NCBI GenBank assembly: GCA_963779755.1
Contig: CAVZZO010000003.1
Span: 1,280,001 to 1,344,000, forward strand
Origin: an uncultured Gemmatimonadales bacterium
GTDB taxonomy: Bacteria > Gemmatimonadota > Gemmatimonadetes > Gemmatimonadales > GWC2-71-9
Length of the DNA: 64,000 nt
Reading direction: 5' to 3'
How positions within the stretch are numbered: the first letter of the stretch is position 1; every line of letters starts with the position of its first letter. Shown here piece after piece: positions 23,201 through 34,329 of the stretch. The notes beneath the pieces are model-generated. The model ran no database searches, had not been told where the DNA came from, and worked only from the letters and a program-made list of their open reading frames with translations. A program made the translations under genes and the position numbers.

Positions 23201-24586
23201 GCGGCGAGCCTGGCAGACACGCTGGGCATCGCCGCCGGCGATGCCGCTATCGCGCTGGCGGAGCTGGAGGCCGAAGGCACCGTGCTGCGCGGCTATTTCA
23301 CCCCCGATGCCGGTGTGCTCGAGTGGTGCCACCGACGGCTGCTGGCCCGCATCCATCGCTACACCCTCACCCGGCTCCGCACCGAGATCGAGCCGGTGAA
23401 TGCCGCCGATTTCATGCGGTTCCTCTTCACCTGGCAGCGGGTCGAGCCGGAAACCCGGGCCAGCGGTCTGGAGGGCCTCTCGGCGGTGCTGGATCAACTG
23501 GACGGGTACGAGCTGCCCTCGGGCGCCTGGGAGAGCGATGTGCTGGCTCTGCGGATCAACGAATACGACCCTGCGCTGCTCGACACGCTCTGCCTCACCG
23601 GGCGGGTGGCCTGGGGACGGCTCTCCGAGGCCCGGCAGCCGGAGGGCCAGGGCGCGCCGGGCCGCCCCATCCGCTCGACCCCGGTGGCGCTGTTCCGCCG
23701 CGACCACGCCAATCTCTGGCGCGCCCTGGCACCGGCTCCCCAACCGCCGGCGCTCTCGACCTATGCCGCCCTGGTCAGCGAAGCGCTGGAACGGCGGGGA
23801 GCTTCGTTCTTCCAGGAGATCGTCGCCGCCTCGGGGCTCCTGGCAACCCAGGTCGAGGAGGCCCTGGGCGAGCTCGCCTCGCTGGGCCGGGTCACCTCGG
23901 ACGGCTTCACCGGCCTGCGGGCGCTGGTTACGCCGGCCGACCGCCGGCCTCCGGTGGGCGCCCGGCGCCGGGCCCGGGCGGCGGTTCCGGCCGGGGTGGA
24001 AACGGCGGGGCGATGGGCGCTGATCGAGGGCGGCAGGACGGCAGGACGGCAGGACGGCAGGCAGGATGACCCGCCGGGAAAGCCGGACGACCGCGGGCAG
24101 CCGATCGAGGCCTTTGCCTGGACGCTGTTGCGGCGGTATGGCGTGGTCTTTCGCAGGCTGCTCGCGCCCGAAGCGCTGGCGCCCGCCTGGCGCGAGCTGG
24201 TGATGGTCTATCGCCGGCTGGAGGCTCGGGGAGAGATCCGGGGCGGCCGTTTCGTGGCCGGCGTCTCGGGCGAGCAGTTCGCCCTGCCGGAGGCGGTGGG
24301 GTCGCTGCGTTCGGCCCGGCGCCGGGAGCCGACCGGCCGCCTGCTCAGCATCAGCGCAGCCGATCCCCTGAACCTCACCGGCATCGTCACGCCGGGGCCG
24401 CGGGTGCCCGCCCTCGCGTCATACCGGATTATCTACCAGGACGGCGTCCCCCTCGCCTCGCGGGAGGGAGGCCAGATCCGGCCGCTGGCGCTGATCCCGC
24501 CGGAACGGACGCACGAGATCGAGCGGGCGCTGGTGCGGAAACGGCCGATAGAAGCGCGGAGCGGGGCGGTCGGAAAGGTGGGATAA
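20237..24586 (+). CDS. lhr: Lhr-family ATP-dependent DExH helicase with extended C-terminal domain
   Basis: APTGSGKT, TTPESLYLLL, DEIH, LSAT, ATASLELGIDIG, QRVGRAGH; C-terminal LLRRYGVVF, GEIRGGRFV..GEQFA, AADPLNL. Confidence 0.93.
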   Translation: MAPELFHPAVSRWFSRRFGAPTPAQQRGWEAIRSGRHTLIAAPTGSGKTLAAFLSALDDLLREGQDGPLADETRVLYVSPLKALTADIHYNLTEPRREIRQVAEEMGAEPVRITAAMRTGDTPSAARAAMLRTPPHILVTTPESLYLLLTAERSREMLRTVRTVIVDEIHAVIESRRGAHLALSLERLGHITGREPQRIGLSATQKPIEAVAAWLTGTDDPAACAIVDEGHRRALDLGLEVPGAPLEAVMSAEVWEEVYARLAELIDQHRTTLVFVNTRRLAERAARHLAERLGEEAVTAHHGSLSKDVRLDAEERLKSGKLRALVATASLELGIDIGHVDLVCQLGSPRRISTFLQRVGRAGHTVHGTPKGRLFPLSRDELVECTALLRATGRGDLDRLVIPPKPFDVLAQQVVAETACEDWQEEDLFQLARRAWPYRTLTREEFAETVEMTAQGFSTRRGRRGALVHHDAVHHRLRGRRGARLLALTSGGAIPDNADYRVVLEPEGTFLGTLNEDFAVESMAGDVFQLGNTSWRILRIESGVVRVEDARGEPPSIPFWLGEAPGRSDELSLEVSRLRADLEPLLADEEAAIAWLLAETGIGRPAAAQLVRYLAEARRLLGALPTQDCLVAERFFDEAGGMQLIVHSPFGSRMNRAWGLALRKRFCRQFNFELQAAATEDGILLSLGPQHSFPLEDVFRFLQPESAENILVQALLDAPMFGTHWRWNATIALAIARNRGGRKVAPQLQRMQAEDLLAAVFPDAAACLENIAGDREVPDHLLARQTIADCLHEVMDIDGLRTVLERIRSGNVRLVARDLPEPSTLASEVVNARVYAFLDDAPLEERRTQAVYTRRALEPSSAGDLGALDVAAIERVRGEAWPDPRDADEMHDALLTSGILTTAGRQDGRAAGEDWAALLQELLATGRAGRMGDRWFATERVEEIRAVFPDAVIEPPGLTAPGDVPRPDRQSAVKELVRGQLEILGPVTAASLADTLGIAAGDAAIALAELEAEGTVLRGYFTPDAGVLEWCHRRLLARIHRYTLTRLRTEIEPVNAADFMRFLFTWQRVEPETRASGLEGLSAVLDQLDGYELPSGAWESDVLALRINEYDPALLDTLCLTGRVAWGRLSEARQPEGQGAPGRPIRSTPVALFRRDHANLWRALAPAPQPPALSTYAALVSEALERRGASFFQEIVAASGLLATQVEEALGELASLGRVTSDGFTGLRALVTPADRRPPVGARRRARAAVPAGVETAGRWALIEGGRTAGRQDGRQDDPPGKPDDRGQPIEAFAWTLLRRYGVVFRRLLAPEALAPAWRELVMVYRRLEARGEIRGGRFVAGVSGEQFALPEAVGSLRSARRREPTGRLLSISAADPLNLTGIVTPGPRVPALASYRIIYQDGVPLASREGGQIRPLALIPPERTHEIERALVRKRPIEARSGAVGKVG
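22939..22971 (+). repeat. GACGGCAG octamer array inside lhr
   Basis: About 4 units, encoding TAGRQDGRAAG. Confidence 0.85.
24029..24066 (+). repeat. GACGGCAG octamer array inside lhr
   Basis: 4 units plus a partial unit, encoding GGRTAGRQDGRQD. Confidence 0.85.
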
Positions 24587-24590
24587 CGAC

Positions 24591-24650
24591 GGGAAACGGG
24601 AAGAGGGAAAGGATATTGTATCTCTCCCCTTTCCCTTTTCCCCATTCCCG
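24591..24650. repeat. Purine/pyrimidine heptamer inverted repeat between convergent genes
   Basis: GGGAAACGGGAAGAGGGAAAGG...CCCCTTTCCCTTTTCCCCATTCCCG; relatives at about 29980, 53550 and 56795. Confidence 0.7.
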
Positions 24651-24659
24651 CAGTTGAGT

Positions 24660-25244
24660 TCAGCTCTGGTTCCCCGCAAACAGCACGTTGTACAACACCA
24701 GCCCGTGGTGCACGGCCGTCGCGATCAGCTCGGCTTCGTAGTACGGCATGGAACCGAGCTGGTCCTTGAGCCCGTCCAGGGCCCCCGCCACCTGCTCCCC
24801 CGAGCGCATCCCCTTGAAGCGCTGCAGCAGACCGGTGCGCAGCGCCTCTTCGACCCACGGCTTGGTCTCCACGGTGGCCACCGTCGCCACCACGTCGGCG
24901 ATGGAGCCGTCGGGGTTCATGGTCAGGCCCACTTCCAGCGGCCCATGGACCGTGTTCACCTGGGGGAAGAAGACCACCCCCTGCAGCTCGCCCCCGGCAT
25001 TCTTCCCGAGATAGAACTTCATGTCGGGATCCTGCGGGTTCCAGTCCACTTTCGCCTGAATGGCGTCGAGGTCGTTCTTTCCGATGGTCACGTCACGGAC
25101 GAAGAACCGCGTGGCGCCGGGCAGCGTCTGGCGGATGACGTCCACCTGTTTCGCCAGCACCACCTTGGGGGTGGGGTGCGCCCGCGGAACGAGCAACAGC
25201 GGCAGGGCCAGCGCGGCGCCGGCCAGTCGGGACAACCCTCGCAT
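24660..25244 (-). CDS. Exported protein, FMN-binding-domain-like (RnfG/NqrC-type fold), lacking a clear flavinylation motif
   Basis: Signal peptide MRGLSRLAGAALALPLLLVPRA; TVHGPLEVGLTMNPDGSIADV; LLQRFKG; no SGAT motif. Confidence 0.65.
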   Translation of the reverse strand: MRGLSRLAGAALALPLLLVPRAHPTPKVVLAKQVDVIRQTLPGATRFFVRDVTIGKNDLDAIQAKVDWNPQDPDMKFYLGKNAGGELQGVVFFPQVNTVHGPLEVGLTMNPDGSIADVVATVATVETKPWVEEALRTGLLQRFKGMRSGEQVAGALDGLKDQLGSMPYYEAELIATAVHHGLVLYNVLFAGNQS

Positions 25245-25246
25245 GT

Positions 25247-25801
25247 TCAGACCTCCTGTCCGGTCCGGCGCGCCGTCACGGCGCGCAGGGTTCCGATGAG
25301 TACGATAAGATAGACCAGCGACATCCCCCAGCCGGATACGATCGTCAGCCAGGCGAAGCCGGGAATGCCGAAGTTCATCAGCCACTGTCCGGCAAAGTCC
25401 AGTGCTCCGAACCCGAAGGCGCCGAGGATCATCAGCTCGCGAAATCCGCGGGACCACCCCAGGCCAAGAATGATGAGCGTCTCCAGGGCCGCCACGATGG
25501 AGTAGATCATGATGTGAATATGGCTGTCCTGGACCAGCAGCTGGGTATCCACGGTATGCTGCATTTCCGGCACCTTGCCCAGATCGAGCGGCTGGGTCAT
25601 GGACATCGACGTATCGGGCATGCCCGATTCCTTGACGGCCGGCGGGGGCACGTAGGTCGCCTGCACCTTGGCCGGCGTCAGCCCGGACCAGGTCTTCACC
25701 ATGAAGAAGGCGAAGATGTAGGCGTAGCCCAGCACCAGCAGAAACAGCACGGCGGCCAGTTTGACCGAGCGGTCGGCGTCCCGGAGACGATAGAGACCCA
25801 T
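25247..25801 (-). CDS. Four-TM membrane protein with a Met-rich loop and HxH motif
   Basis: Loop GMPDTSMSMTQ...EMQH; DSHIHIM at the start of TM2. Confidence 0.75.
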   Translation of the reverse strand: MGLYRLRDADRSVKLAAVLFLLVLGYAYIFAFFMVKTWSGLTPAKVQATYVPPPAVKESGMPDTSMSMTQPLDLGKVPEMQHTVDTQLLVQDSHIHIMIYSIVAALETLIILGLGWSRGFRELMILGAFGFGALDFAGQWLMNFGIPGFAWLTIVSGWGMSLVYLIVLIGTLRAVTARRTGQEV

Positions 25802-25809
25802 GGATGCTC

Positions 25810-26976
25810 CTAGAAGAACGTCACCACCGTCTGCAGCCGGTATTCGATGTTCCAGTTGTCCAGGCCGCTACTGGTTTCGAAGACCGGCTCGGTGGAGTGG
25901 TTGACCCGCACTTCCGCCCGAAACTGCAGCTGGGGAATGCGATAGGTGGTGTGCTGCACGTTGGCGAAGATGCCCTCGCGCCCCACGCCCAGCGAATACA
26001 CCGGCGCAAAGGTGTAGGACGTCAGGGTCTGCGCCGTGCCGGTGCGCATCCCGTCGCCGTCGTGGAATACCTCGGCCCGGCCGGCCAGCCCGAAATGGCG
26101 GCTCAACTGGTGGAAGACGGTCAGCATGGCGCCCGCCCAGGTGGCATCGCCACCGCCCGCCAGCACCTTCCGGTCGCCGCCGTAGTTGGCCTCGCCGGCG
26201 ATGATCCAGTTCCAGGTGGGCTGCAGCGCGTAGTCGAAGGTGAGGAGGTAGCGGTTATTGGTCATGCCCTGGTCGCCCTCGACGCCGTAGAGGCCGCTCA
26301 GGCCCAGACTGACCCCGTCGGCCGGCAGCAGCCCCAGCCGGGCGCCGCCGCTCTTCCCCTTGTTGGGATCGATATCGCTATCCCAGCCGTTGAACACAAA
26401 GGCGGAGACGTCCACCCGCGGAGTGGCAGCCCAGAAGCTCATGACGCCCACCATCTTGACCGGCCGCGCCAGCTCGAAGTTGTAGCTGGGCGAGGCCAGC
26501 AGGTTCAGAGGCTCGTCGTCGCGCTCGAACCCGATCGGCAGGTCCACCTTCCCGAAGTTGAACAGGAGATTGCTCGCGCCCGGCACGGTCACGCTCACCA
26601 GCAGATTATCGATCTCGGTCTCGGTGACCGGCTCGCCGCCGGGTGTCTCCGGCGCGCCCAGGGCCGTGGTGAGCTGGCCGAAGAAATAGCTGTAGTCGGT
26701 GATCGGCTTGAAGACGCCGACTGCGACCTTGCTGGCTTCGAAAGTGTTGGTTCCGGTGCGGCCGTCATAGTTGTAGTTCCCGACCCCGAACCCGGTCACC
26801 TGCAGCGCGTTCTGGTCGCCGCTGGAGAGGTTCAGTGACTGGTCGCCTCCCTCGAGACTGATGGGGTGGTCGCCCGAATCCGGGACCTGAGCCCGCGCCG
26901 TGCCGGTCAAGCCGGCCAGGGCGGCCAGGGCCAGCAGCATGGCTCCCACCCGGGGGGTGATCGGTGAGATATGCAT
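25810..26976 (-). CDS. Outer-membrane beta-barrel porin
   Basis: Signal peptide ending ARAQ, alternating amphipathic strands, FGKVDLPIGFE, FNGWD, terminal Phe (TVVTFF); GCGGAGG SD. Confidence 0.85.
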   Translation of the reverse strand: MHISPITPRVGAMLLALAALAGLTGTARAQVPDSGDHPISLEGGDQSLNLSSGDQNALQVTGFGVGNYNYDGRTGTNTFEASKVAVGVFKPITDYSYFFGQLTTALGAPETPGGEPVTETEIDNLLVSVTVPGASNLLFNFGKVDLPIGFERDDEPLNLLASPSYNFELARPVKMVGVMSFWAATPRVDVSAFVFNGWDSDIDPNKGKSGGARLGLLPADGVSLGLSGLYGVEGDQGMTNNRYLLTFDYALQPTWNWIIAGEANYGGDRKVLAGGGDATWAGAMLTVFHQLSRHFGLAGRAEVFHDGDGMRTGTAQTLTSYTFAPVYSLGVGREGIFANVQHTTYRIPQLQFRAEVRVNHSTEPVFETSSGLDNWNIEYRLQTVVTFF

Positions 26977-27076
26977 GGTCCTCCGCAGAGTTCGCAGCCA
27001 ATAGTCCGCGCCGCCGGACCATGGCGGCCGCGGGCGTGCAGGGTGCACGTCGCCTTGAGCAGTCAGGGGAAGCGCG

Positions 27077-27430
27077 TCAGGCGAGGCGCGGAGGCGGCGG
27101 ATCGGCGGAGAGGGTGTGCCGGGTCTGGAGCTGCGGCAGAAATACCGGCTCCTCCGACAGGAGGCGGCCAGCCGGCAAGGCTGCGACCGGCTCGGCCTGC
27201 AACATGGGCGAGAGCCCCTGCTGCATCAGGGGCGTGTGCGCTGCTACACCTTCGGTGTGGCAGGCCGCGCCGTGCATGGCCATCGGCATTTCGCCGGCGC
27301 CGGTATGAGGCGTTTCGGCCCGTGGAGCGCCGCCGGCGCTCAGGCAGATTACCGCGCAGACCACCCACGCCTGGGCCGCCACAAAGGCGGCCAGGACGGC
27401 GAGTGCGGAGAGGCGGCGGCGCAGCGGCAT
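27077..27430 (-). CDS. CutF/CruR(DUF2946)-like leader peptide, 117 aa
   Basis: Signal/TM N-terminus, CAVIC, EMPMAMHGAACH, C-terminal DPPPPRLA; C-terminal part of track ORF 27077..28192, restarted at ATG 27430. Confidence 0.78.
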   Translation of the reverse strand: MPLRRRLSALAVLAAFVAAQAWVVCAVICLSAGGAPRAETPHTGAGEMPMAMHGAACHTEGVAAHTPLMQQGLSPMLQAEPVAALPAGRLLSEEPVFLPQLQTRHTLSADPPPPRLA

Positions 27431-27553
27431 CAGGTCGAAAATCCCCGAAAGTGTGGGAGGTTTAAGGTAACACTGGTCCGGAGGACAGGGTACCCGCTTG
27501 GCCCCGGGCCCGCAGTGGTCTATGCTCAGCGCATCGTTCTGCCAGGAGGAGAC

Positions 27554-28939: not shown

Positions 28940-29060
28940 CCGGCCGTTTGGCCTCTTGGCGCACACTACCGGGGCCATATATTGGGGCCGCGCGCGGACG
29001 CCACAGGTGGCCGTCCGGCGCTTCCCGGATGCAGGGTTGCCGACCTACTAAGGAGAAGGC

Positions 29061-32083: not shown

Positions 32084-33010
32084 CTAGTTCGCCGCGGTCA
32101 GGCTCAGATCGGTCGTGACCGACTGGCCGCTCACCACCGTGACGGTGGCGGGCAGCGCCGGATCGGTGGTCACCGAGGTGACGCCCGCCGGCAGGGCCAG
32201 ATCCAGCGAATAGTCGCCCGAGGGCTTGAAGCCGAACGAGGCTTCGAAAGTCCCGTCCTGATTGTCGTCGCTGAACCGGACGGTATCGGCGGTATTGTCG
32301 CCCGCAGTGAGCACCGCGGCGAGGTCCGAGAGCAACGCCCCGCCGGGCAGGGTGACGCCGGAAGCGGCCGTCAGGGTGACGGTAGCGCTTCCGGTGGTGG
32401 TGAAATCGGCCCCGGTGATGACCGGGTGCATCACCCACATGCCCGACTGCCCCGCCTGGTGGCCGAAGCTCTGAGCCACGTTGAAATCCACCAGCAGAAT
32501 GCGGGTGCCGCCGTCGGGCACCGTCAGTGCATCGCCGGGCAGCGTGACCTTGAGCCCCGACTGGCCCAGACTGGGGGCCTGGAGCGTGCCGTCCACCTGG
32601 GCGCCCGGCGGCAGGCCCTCATAGGTGGGGCTGGTGGCATAAAGGCTGGACGTGCCGTCACCGTTATCCACCTGGAGGTAGGCGCCGGTGACCACGAAAC
32701 GCAGCTGGCTGTAACTGCCGGCGGGCACCACGACATCTTCGACCAAGCTGCCGGTGCTGTCGGCCAGCGTGAGCAGGTCGGTCGTCACGGCGGTGTCACT
32801 CAGCACCACCTGGCCGCTGTCGCCCTGCAGATAGATCTTCGAAATGGTCACCACCGCCGCCTGGACGTCGCCCGGCGCATCGGTCAGGAGCACGGAGACC
32901 TTCCCGCTGCCGGACGGAGCGGTGCTGTCGCTGCTGCTGCAGCCCGAGAGGAGCGCGGCGGCGCCAACCAGTAACGCGCTCCAGGTTCGAAGCGTTCCAA
33001 TCATTCGCAT
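32084..33010 (-). CDS. DUF4382 domain lipoprotein
   Basis: Lipobox LSGC, LLTDAP, DLLTL, PAGSYSQLRF, PSLGQSGLKV, LVDFNVAQS. Confidence 0.85.
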   Translation of the reverse strand: MRMIGTLRTWSALLVGAAALLSGCSSSDSTAPSGSGKVSVLLTDAPGDVQAAVVTISKIYLQGDSGQVVLSDTAVTTDLLTLADSTGSLVEDVVVPAGSYSQLRFVVTGAYLQVDNGDGTSSLYATSPTYEGLPPGAQVDGTLQAPSLGQSGLKVTLPGDALTVPDGGTRILLVDFNVAQSFGHQAGQSGMWVMHPVITGADFTTTGSATVTLTAASGVTLPGGALLSDLAAVLTAGDNTADTVRFSDDNQDGTFEASFGFKPSGDYSLDLALPAGVTSVTTDPALPATVTVVSGQSVTTDLSLTAAN

Positions 33011-33101
33011 GGTAGTCCTGAGCTGAGGTAAGGTGTCAGAGATTGCCACGCCACGGATGCCGCGGCGTTCGATACCTTACTCTCCCGCCGGGGCGCGCCA
33101 C

Positions 33102-33240: not shown

Positions 33241-34158
33241 CTAGTTGGCGCCGGTCAGGCCGAATGACGCGGTGGACGACTGCCCGCTCACGATCGTGAG
33301 CGTGGCGGGGAGCGCCGGGCTGGTGGTCACGGCGGTGAGCCCTTCGGGCAGTTTCAGGTCGAGCGAGTAGTTGCCCGGGGGGAGGTAGGGGAAGGTCGCC
33401 TCGAACGTCCCGTCCTGGTTGGCGTCGCTGAACGCGGCGGAGGATGTCGTGCTGTCGCCGGCTGTCAGCACCGCCTGCAGATCGGTCATGCCGGCGCCGC
33501 CGGGAAGCACCACGCCCGAGTCGGGCGTGACGGTTACCTTCGCGTTCCCCGTCAGTGTCATGTCCGAGCCCTTGATCACCGGGAGCAGGACCCACTGTCC
33601 CGAGCCGGTCTGGTGGCCGAAGCTCTGGGAGACGTCGAAGTCCACCAGCAGGATCCGGGCACCTCCCTCTGGCACGGCCAGGGAATCGTCGGGCATCAGG
33701 ACCTTGAGCCCGGATTCGGTCAGGCTGGGCGCCAGCAGCGTGCCGTCCACCTGGGCGCCGGGCGGCAGCCCGGCATAGCCGGCGCTGGTGGCGTAGATGC
33801 TGGAGGTGCCGTCGCCGTTATCCACCCTGATGTAAGCGCCCGTGATCACGAAACGGAGCTGCTCATACACGCCGGCGGGAATATCGACCTCATGGACCAG
33901 GTTCTGGGTGGTGTGGGAAAGCGTGATGAGATCGGTGGTGACCGCCTGGTTTCGCAGCATCGCCTGGGTGATCTCGGATTGCAGATAGATCCTCGAAATG
34001 GTGACCACTGCCGCCTGAACGTCGCCCGGCGCATCGGTCAGGAGCAACGAAATCTTGCCGGTGCCGGCGGTCCCCGTGCTGTCGCTGCAGCCGGAGAGCA
34101 GAACCAGGACCGCGCCCAGCAGCGCCGTCCGGCTCCGGAAGAGTTGACTCAGTCGCAT
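33241..34158 (-). CDS. DUF4382 domain lipoprotein (tandem paralog)
   Basis: LSGC, LLTDAPGDVQAAVVTISRIYLQ nearly identical to the neighbour. Confidence 0.85.
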   Translation of the reverse strand: MRLSQLFRSRTALLGAVLVLLSGCSDSTGTAGTGKISLLLTDAPGDVQAAVVTISRIYLQSEITQAMLRNQAVTTDLITLSHTTQNLVHEVDIPAGVYEQLRFVITGAYIRVDNGDGTSSIYATSAGYAGLPPGAQVDGTLLAPSLTESGLKVLMPDDSLAVPEGGARILLVDFDVSQSFGHQTGSGQWVLLPVIKGSDMTLTGNAKVTVTPDSGVVLPGGAGMTDLQAVLTAGDSTTSSAAFSDANQDGTFEATFPYLPPGNYSLDLKLPEGLTAVTTSPALPATLTIVSGQSSTASFGLTGAN

Positions 34159-34329
34159 ATAAGCCGTCCCTGCTGGGGTGATCCCTGTGACCGCGCCTCC
34201 GCTGGCATGGAAGGGCGCATGGGTCAAGCTAGGATTTACACCCGGAAGAACCGGGAACGATTCGCATGAAACCGTTCTTGGGACCGGCTCACCTTTCCCT
34301 CAGAGTATCCTCCCCGGGCCGGCCCGGCC

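Follow-up and report, generated by a model that had tools for sequence, protein, structure and literature searches.

A window of 64,000 nucleotides (nt) from an uncultured Gemmatimonadales bacterium (contig CAVZZO010000003.1, positions 1,280,001 to 1,344,000; positions below are those of the window) contains a four-gene operon in which the gene of a short leader peptide precedes those of an outer-membrane porin, an inner-membrane protein and an FMN-bind-like protein. The leader is very probably a cis-acting switch for the genes downstream of it, and copper is its probable signal. In the complete reading, to which we give an even chance, three envelope proteins form a module, most likely for copper import, whose translation is switched in response to a metal. 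The features concerned are the following:

27077..27430, minus strand: leader open reading frame (ORF), 117 amino acids (aa), with basic N-terminus, hydrophobic segment, C25xxxC29, His/Met-rich loop, C57-H58, spacer and PPPPR tail
27344..27358, minus strand: codons of the CxxxC motif, right behind the hydrophobic segment of the leader
27257..27262, minus strand: codons of Cys57-His58 of the leader, at a distance of 59 residues, counting both ends, from the Arg in the proline tail
27105..27111, minus strand: second pyrimidine tract, just ahead of the proline codons, pairing with the porin Shine-Dalgarno (SD) sequence in the minimum-energy fold for the window (z -2.41)
27086..27100, minus strand: PPPPR codons, the predicted pause site, with the anti-SD sequence CCUCC inside (27090-27094)
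26977..27076, minus strand: structured leader-porin intergenic region, 100 nt, with the porin SD sequence GGAGG at 26980-26984
25810..26976, minus strand: BBP2-family outer-membrane porin, 388 aa (Pfam match)
25247..25801, minus strand: Aq_1264_TM-type four-helix inner-membrane protein, 184 aa (homolog family, predicted fold)
24660..25244, minus strand: FMN-bind/RnfG-like protein, 194 aa, exported or anchored (family profile, Atlas)

The four genes are separated by 100, 8 and 2 nt in the order given, and both the co-oriented arrangement with its two short gaps and the motifs quoted for the leader and the membrane protein in an earlier, sequence-only reading were borne out. A search with the membrane protein yielded 53 genome loci, nearly all titled Gemmatimonadota, and metagenome relatives were represented by the best 80 of 586 matches, which come from a second clade that is about 40% identical. 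Wherever enough sequence was available, the membrane gene had the porin gene upstream (120 of 120 loci) and the FMN-like gene downstream (125 of 125). Of 50 assessable loci, the window included, 48 have a leader; four further loci, truncated or lacking the porin, had been dropped, and the two misses are L019 and L027. The neighbourhood conservation for which the sequence-only reading had called is thus present, and the leader, porin, membrane and FMN-like genes form a fixed operon in Gemmatimonadota. In a sample of the phylum, a wide profile of the membrane protein matched 39 of 201 genomes, 25 as close members and the others as distant paralogs. In the second clade, a 147-aa lipoprotein-like gene without a Pfam match follows the operon on the same strand (L108:7159-7599 and 24 other loci). 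A search for longer forms returned four proteins, three of which are porin-membrane protein joins.

By its sequence, the leader is a conserved coding gene. The filter used to recognize leaders demanded Cys and PP patterns, so that these motifs are partly built in, whereas spacing, codon choice and the ratio of nonsynonymous to synonymous substitutions (dN/dS) were not filtered on. The dN/dS values were 0.25-0.53 in 11 of 11 disjoint pairs, with a downward bias from the protein-guided alignment. Lack of conservation, which the sequence-only reading had named as fatal to its proposal, was not observed, as the leader is retained and under purifying selection. Invariant in 43 aligned leaders are C25, C29, P112-P114 and R115, while C57 and H58 are conserved at 90% or more in the same alignment, and in 44 of 48 leaders the third Cys is followed by His. 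From this third Cys to the terminal Arg the distance is 59.3 ± 1.0 residues (range 55-62, n = 48), whereas the loop between CxxxC and the third Cys varies from 16 to 49 residues (standard deviation 6.0 as against 1.0). The spacer between the Cys-His pair and the tail is barely conserved in sequence among the 43 leaders. Proline runs of three to four residues occur in 46 of 47 leaders, the PPPP of the window occupying residues 111-114, and the loops contain 12.3% His and 8.0% Met. Inspection by eye revealed a basic start and a hydrophobic segment in all leaders inspected. Of the leader motifs emphasized by the sequence-only reading, CxxxC proved to be conserved, but the Met stretch is not a conserved ligand, and a Cys-His pair appears instead. 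The second clade has two unrelated-looking leader types, again with fixed spacings of 57-58 (26 sequences) and 52-54 residues (11 sequences).

The leader does not belong to the family in which it might have been sought. PF11162 (DUF2946) gave no match for the window leader and none for the 43 leaders at E ≤ 1, scans with DUF2946, FMN_bind and NCBIfam gave none for the leader, the membrane protein or the FMN-like protein, and a DUF2946 search of the window's genome found a different leader only. The DUF2946 and FMN_bind matches that the sequence-only reading had expected for the leader and the last protein were thus not found, and RAPP or RGPP occurs in 1 of 47 leaders. The leader does fall within the rule-based definition of CutF-like proteins (fewer than 150 aa, PP in the last 15 residues; PMC9973294). 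It also has two further features of that definition, namely the Cys/His metal motif, in a placement unlike that in CutF, and, by computation only, an RNA structure over the next ribosome-binding site (RBS) that a paused ribosome would open.

With CutF of Rhodobacter capsulatus, the leader ahead of cutO, it shares the length (CutF has about 118 aa), CxxxC, apparently an export signal, a C-terminal PPPR, the position as first gene of the operon and a structure over the RBS of the next gene (PMC9973294; bioRxiv 10.1101/2025.02.05.636593; PMC8456105), and its [DE]xPPPR tail resembles the tail P109-L118 of CutF. It differs from CutF in that CxxxC directly follows the signal segment, some 90 residues before the C-terminus, in the fixed spacing of 59 residues to the Cys-His pair (45 in CutF, from C73 to R117), in the anti-SD sequence inside the proline codons and in its cargo, a porin module instead of a multicopper oxidase. 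With CruR, ahead of bfrG in Bordetella pertussis, it shares the upstream ORF, a conserved ligand-to-arrest spacing and the place ahead of an outer-membrane entry gene (PMC9426467); arrest of CruR has been demonstrated (PMC12992588). Unlike CruR, it lacks both the PF11162 domain and CxxC-RAPP, and its spacing is 59 residues, not the 45 at which the ligand-to-arrest distance of CruR is fixed (PMC9426467). CruR acts by copper-triggered Rho-dependent termination, whereas the evidence for the present leader points to masking of the SD sequence. Judged by its motifs, the leader is one that probably works like CutF and CruR and is not a member of PF11162.

The proline codons of the tail are chosen in an unusual manner. 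CCU accounts for 31% of them compared to 3-8% elsewhere, and CCUCC is found in the proline run of 41 of 48 leaders, where 4.1-9.8 would be expected; of the genomic runs of three or more prolines, 40 of 233 contain it. In the second clade CCUCC is present in 21 of 26 leaders of the 57-58 type and in 11 of 11 of the 52-54 type. The predicted duplex between the leader end and its cognate RBS reached -14.2, compared to -13.3 for permuted pairs (p 0.001, with kin that are not independent) and to -11.9 with resampled proline codons (0 of 200 as strong). When a ribosome footprint was placed on the last Pro, the cost of opening the RBS fell from 13.75 to 11.1 kcal/mol (32 lower and 2 higher of 48), and in the window alone from 11.2 to 7.7, whereas with a footprint 27 codons further upstream it stayed at 13.7. 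Footprints from 4 codons before the last Pro to 3 codons after it were equally effective, indicating that the dwell time near the end matters. In the second clade the cost decreased from 14.75 to 12.17 (22 lower and 3 higher of 36). According to these predictions, the last codons of the leader can sequester the RBS of the porin gene, and a ribosome standing on them frees it, so that pausing would mean ON. Conservation, purifying selection, the fixed ligand-to-arrest distance and the anti-SD sequence in the proline codons thus support the sequence-only proposal of a CutF/CruR-like cis-acting leader ahead of a new cargo.

From these elements the following course of events can be proposed. The leader would be exported co-translationally, with CxxxC already outside when the ribosome reaches the proline run. 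Measured from the active site, membrane insertion sets in at 45-50 residues and periplasmic folding at about 70 (bioRxiv 2021.02.06.430026); at 59 residues, the Cys-His pair would thus be close to where SecY opens into the periplasm. Cu(I) would then close the loop between CxxxC and the Cys-His pair and thereby shorten the pause, the anti-SD sequence would re-pair and the operon would be switched OFF, giving highest expression when copper is scarce. Copper may enter through the acidic porin, be caught by a putative His/Glu site of the FMN-like protein together with the Met-rich loop and be passed to a putative Met/His site of the membrane protein, and the module would do the job that CopC and CopD do in relatives. 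For uptake combined with relief of the pause we consider the chances to be about balanced.

The metal was approached through the genomic context. The leader profile detected 23 of 201 genomes, and eight further leader loci were examined beyond those of the operon, all of them with CCUCC. In four of them the leader precedes a lone PF13557 barrel with a His-rich start; a fifth locus is a copy of the operon with a deletion, a sixth leader heads a set of TonB-dependent receptor, CopC/CopD and DUF1775 (YcnI) protein, and two weak matches head unassigned exported proteins. The PF13557-type barrel has 268 aa and a conserved His-rich N-terminus (L204:6879-7685, L205:7198-8004, L206:983-1786, L207:970-1773). 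In the CopC/CopD locus (L208:538-8502), the leader is followed by a TonB receptor, an unknown protein, a CopC-CopD fusion, a DUF1775 protein and a further exported protein; this sibling leader has the same spacing of 59 as the operon leader. In the deleted copy (L203:1026-1763), an intact leader precedes an in-frame fusion of the first half of the porin to the end of the FMN-like protein, the membrane gene being gone by deletion or misassembly; it belongs to a genus with CopD in 7 of 7 genomes. A SCO1 gene follows the operon directly in three loci and after an inserted TonB receptor in a fourth, all in one subclade. SCO1, TonB-dependent receptors and YcnI are the partner set of CruR homologs (PMC9426467, section 10), and SCO, CopC and YcnI are likewise given as partners of CruR relatives (PMC9426467).

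In the family of the window's bacterium, CopD was present in 3 of 24 operon carriers compared to 38 of 72 non-carriers (Fisher p 0.0006, with kin that are not independent), and none was found in the window's genome. The two systems are thus largely complementary in distribution. In E. coli, the CopD homolog of YobA-YebZ-YebY mediates copper uptake through two His (PMC11923076), and the operon resembles this system in the proposed pairing of an exported His protein with an inner-membrane protein that has two conserved His. They differ in that sequence and Pfam kinship are absent (PF04234 and PF05425 had no match among the operon proteins) and in that four helices and an FMN-bind fold stand in place of CopD and a cupredoxin-like CopC. 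The zinc uptake (ZnuA) and efflux operons of the window's genome, the latter of the resistance-nodulation-division (RND) type, have RAPP-type leaders of their own: one rich in His and Cys heads a barrel-ZnuA operon (G000:C1:376947-377309, minus strand) and another such leader an OEP-CusB-like-CusA/CzcA operon (G000:C1:383110-383574, identical to L134:1492-1956, minus strand), with a heavy-metal P-type ATPase just beyond these operons. The same genome has six COX1 (PF00115) matches, five of them strong, the most among 26 genomes searched, which implies a high demand for copper. Taken together, the leader loci, the partner genes and the distribution of CopD indirectly favour copper uptake.

The membrane protein was predicted to consist of four helices, in line with the four transmembrane segments proposed earlier, with a mean predicted local distance difference test (pLDDT) score of 89; a single-sequence prediction had been poor (pLDDT 64) with an uninformative fold search. 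PF27139 (Aq_1264_TM) was the precomputed annotation of all 120 listed homologs (Atlas 0.96). Invariant in 89 proteins of the operon clade are M34, H82, D92, H94, H96 and M160, and the loss of conserved His and Met residues that would have spoken against the sequence-only reading was thus not seen in this clade. Met makes up 13.6% of the loop compared to 3.4% of the remainder of the protein; the Met loop is not conserved in a wide alignment, and in the operon clade it is kept in composition, not in position. Across the wide family only HxH is invariant, and distant paralogs keep H94 and H96 (11 of 11) and mostly M160, but not M34, H82 and D92. Fold searches with the good model returned generic four-helix bundles only (best Z 8.8; MAPEG/NOR matches at Z of about 5 only), Foldseek gave no match at E ≤ 0.001, and PDB sequence searches none for porin or membrane protein. 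For a relationship of the four helices and HxH to oxidase helices 9-12, as in single-unit heme-copper oxidase homologs, styrene oxide isomerase and MAPEG-like trimers, which HxH had suggested, hhalign scores of 13-18 lay within or at the top of those of shuffled sequences (8.6-17.5).

The porin belongs to PF07642 (BBP2; E 1.4e-29, 103.9 bits compared to a curated cut-off of 26.2), which agrees with the beta-barrel assigned to it before, and its family has an invariant acidic loop of the GFERDDE type; a second possible start is located at 26941. The last protein has no Pfam match, PF04205 included, but its family profile matches RnfG weakly (9eri_G, E 0.0068), and Atlas labels it as FMN-binding family (0.95). 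Its hydrophobic N-terminus is often without an A-x-A cleavage site, so that it may stay membrane-anchored. Of the earlier label 'periplasmic FMN-bind-like', the second part has therefore stood, whereas the periplasmic location is uncertain. H23, H100 and E126 are invariant, and the gene often overlaps the stop codon of the membrane gene. A histidine brace at H23 was discarded, as the preceding residue is often Leu or Arg and no cleavage site is present. Prediction of a complex of the membrane and FMN-like proteins scored 0.48 compared to 0.05 for the best control. Of the solved pairs 116 of 157 reach the mark applied, and of the mismatched pairs 2 of 215, the range from the mark up to 0.60 holding only 18 solved pairs and both mismatches. 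The runs shared at least 56% of contacts with a partner pLDDT of at least 80, homologous redox complexes may have raised the score, and a complex is weakly supported by this modelling.

These proteins have relatives in flavin metabolism. In 14 of 14 loci of distant paralogs (L135-L148, from 14 Gemmatimonadota genomes), three or four of which supplied the queries, a porin gene, an FMN_bind gene with the flavinylation motif [ST]GA[ST], the membrane gene and apbE stand together, often adjoining tig-clpP-clpX; L141 has two copies of the membrane gene. This is apparently an unlisted class of flavinylation cluster. The described ApbE clusters share the porin, the FMN-bind-fold protein and the small membrane protein with our operon (PMC8238504, PMC11334425), and the parts of these papers that were consulted do not name the Aq_1264 membrane family among the electron-transfer classes. 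Our operon differs from such clusters in that apbE is absent from all 133 operon loci (78 with at least 1500 nt downstream), [ST]GA[ST] occurs anywhere in only 3 of 110 FMN-like proteins, the order is porin, membrane protein, FMN-like protein, the porin is of another family and a leader has been added. The proteins of the cargo are homologs of those of a flavin redox operon that is linked to ApbE. We infer that the cargo derived from the flavin module and not the reverse. The sequence-only reading did not recognize the cargo as a described system; our literature searches likewise found no paper on the operon, although the neighbour table of PMC9973294 (File S1) could list such loci, but that reading had missed this homology. 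A tentative extension, which we hold to be somewhat less likely than its negation, is that a copper importer arose by conversion of an extracytosolic flavin electron-transfer module (porin, FMN_bind, Aq_1264 protein, ApbE). The conversion would have entailed the loss of ApbE and of the flavinylation site, the gain of Met/His/Asp ligands on both partners and the addition of an arrest-peptide copper sensor with an anti-SD sequence in its proline codons, and the module would have replaced CopCD in much of one Gemmatimonadota family. If so, bacterial copper importers would include a new class, and a function could be given to the Aq_1264_TM family for the first time.

Several results weigh against a copper-import switch that copper turns off. 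At the RNA level, only 21 of 47 loci reach 4 bp of direct pairing between the proline run and the SD sequence (null 10 of 47), in the window this pairing amounts to 0.1 bp, the adjoining tract pairing with the SD sequence instead, and accessibility increases by a mean of only 2.6 kcal/mol. As to the metal, the exclusion of CopD is not significant by genus (2 of 9 compared to 17 of 28, p 0.06), PF05425 matches may include non-importers, the SCO1 link comes from one subclade and the CopCD link from one genome, and the genes flanking the operon differ between loci, mostly without a link to metals. None of the invariant residues of the porin is a His, Met or Cys, and H94 and H96 do not specify copper, since the ApbE-linked paralogs keep them too. 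Finally, the tail matches that of CutF (PPP, then R), in which copper induces the stall and turns the genes ON in an EF-P-dependent manner (PMC9973294; bioRxiv 2025.02.05.636593).

This last point leads to a reading with the same switch and the opposite direction, which we consider rather unlikely: copper would prolong the pause, free the SD sequence and induce an operon that sequesters, exports or alters the redox state of periplasmic copper. Besides the CutF-like tail, which is the main argument for it, it is favoured by a CusA/CzcA RND system that has weak leader relatives nearby (L209, E 0.004), and CopC/CopD and Met-rich loops occur in resistance systems too. However, the first gene after each of the eight further leaders has an export signal and, wherever a family could be assigned, encodes a barrel of the outer membrane or a TonB receptor, the operon includes neither an oxidase nor an efflux pump in 133 loci, and the SCO1, receptor and YcnI partners are those of CruR-type uptake (PMC9426467). 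Slightly less probable still is a real switch that responds to another signal or substrate (Zn, Ni, Co, Fe, heme or thiol redox state), the membrane pair having kept a redox role, for instance with heme bound by the four-helix protein through H94/H96 and a non-covalent cofactor in the FMN-bind-like partner. It would account for the excess of His over Met in the leader loops, for the porin-FMN_bind-membrane protein-ApbE arrangement of the paralogs, for HxH as sole invariant of the wide family and for the Atlas cluster that PF27139 shares with styrene oxide isomerase, a heme-binding trimer; CutF-like proteins, moreover, are not all copper-specific (PMC9973294). It is at odds with the absence of ApbE and the near-absence of [ST]GA[ST] from the operon, with M34, H82, D92 and a Met-rich loop that are specific to the operon clade and with the different, RAPP-type leader of the genome's ZnuA operon. 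In a last reading, the product of the first gene is a secreted metal chaperone of the ordinary kind that acts in trans, and its proline tail and codon bias play no part in regulation. This fits its putative export signal and conserved ligands, and CutF was first proposed as a chaperone (PMC8456105), but the reading is very improbable, as it fails to explain the fixed 59-residue spacer of free sequence, the rare CCU codons at one site, the covariation with the SD sequence of the next gene and the repetition of this pattern in three leader types.

The regulatory switch is thus of a known type (CutF/CruR), and the module it controls is undescribed; 'Porin' and 'Gemmatimonad' are absent from the main texts of PMC9973294 and PMC9426467. 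Bacterial copper import is still poorly known, and the module may be a new copper-uptake route in soil bacteria. As a candidate importer the operon is compact: it is built from two families without a function, its hosts belong to a soil phylum of high abundance, and E. coli can serve for testing it. The leader family also amounts to an experiment of nature with arrest-peptide sensors, in which three leader types, each with its own fixed spacing (59, 57-58 and 52-54), precede the same cargo and make it directly testable why CutF and CruR respond to copper in opposite ways.

With respect to transcription, a promoter scan at the operon gave no sigma-70 consensus site, and inspection of the upstream regions by eye brought no box for a metal regulator to light. 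Ahead of many leaders (L001-L052), a -10-like hexamer TAnnnT was noticed by eye 6-8 nt before the ATG, without an SD sequence, which suggests leaderless transcripts; in the window the hexamer (27464-27472) is about 35 nt upstream of the leader ATG. No plasmid was found in a search made with a distant homolog. The neighbours of the operon in the window are a DUF72 gene in divergent and an Lhr helicase gene in convergent orientation, and the following feature is a possible operon terminator:

24585..24655, no strand: strong hairpin between the operon end and the convergent Lhr helicase gene (-38.3 kcal/mol, z -3.78, 0 of 200 shuffles)

This hairpin is rich in purine and pyrimidine tracts, and similar tracts occur near 28950 and 30030. 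Two tandem paralogs of a DUF4382 lipoprotein are encoded at 32084-33049 and 33241-34227.

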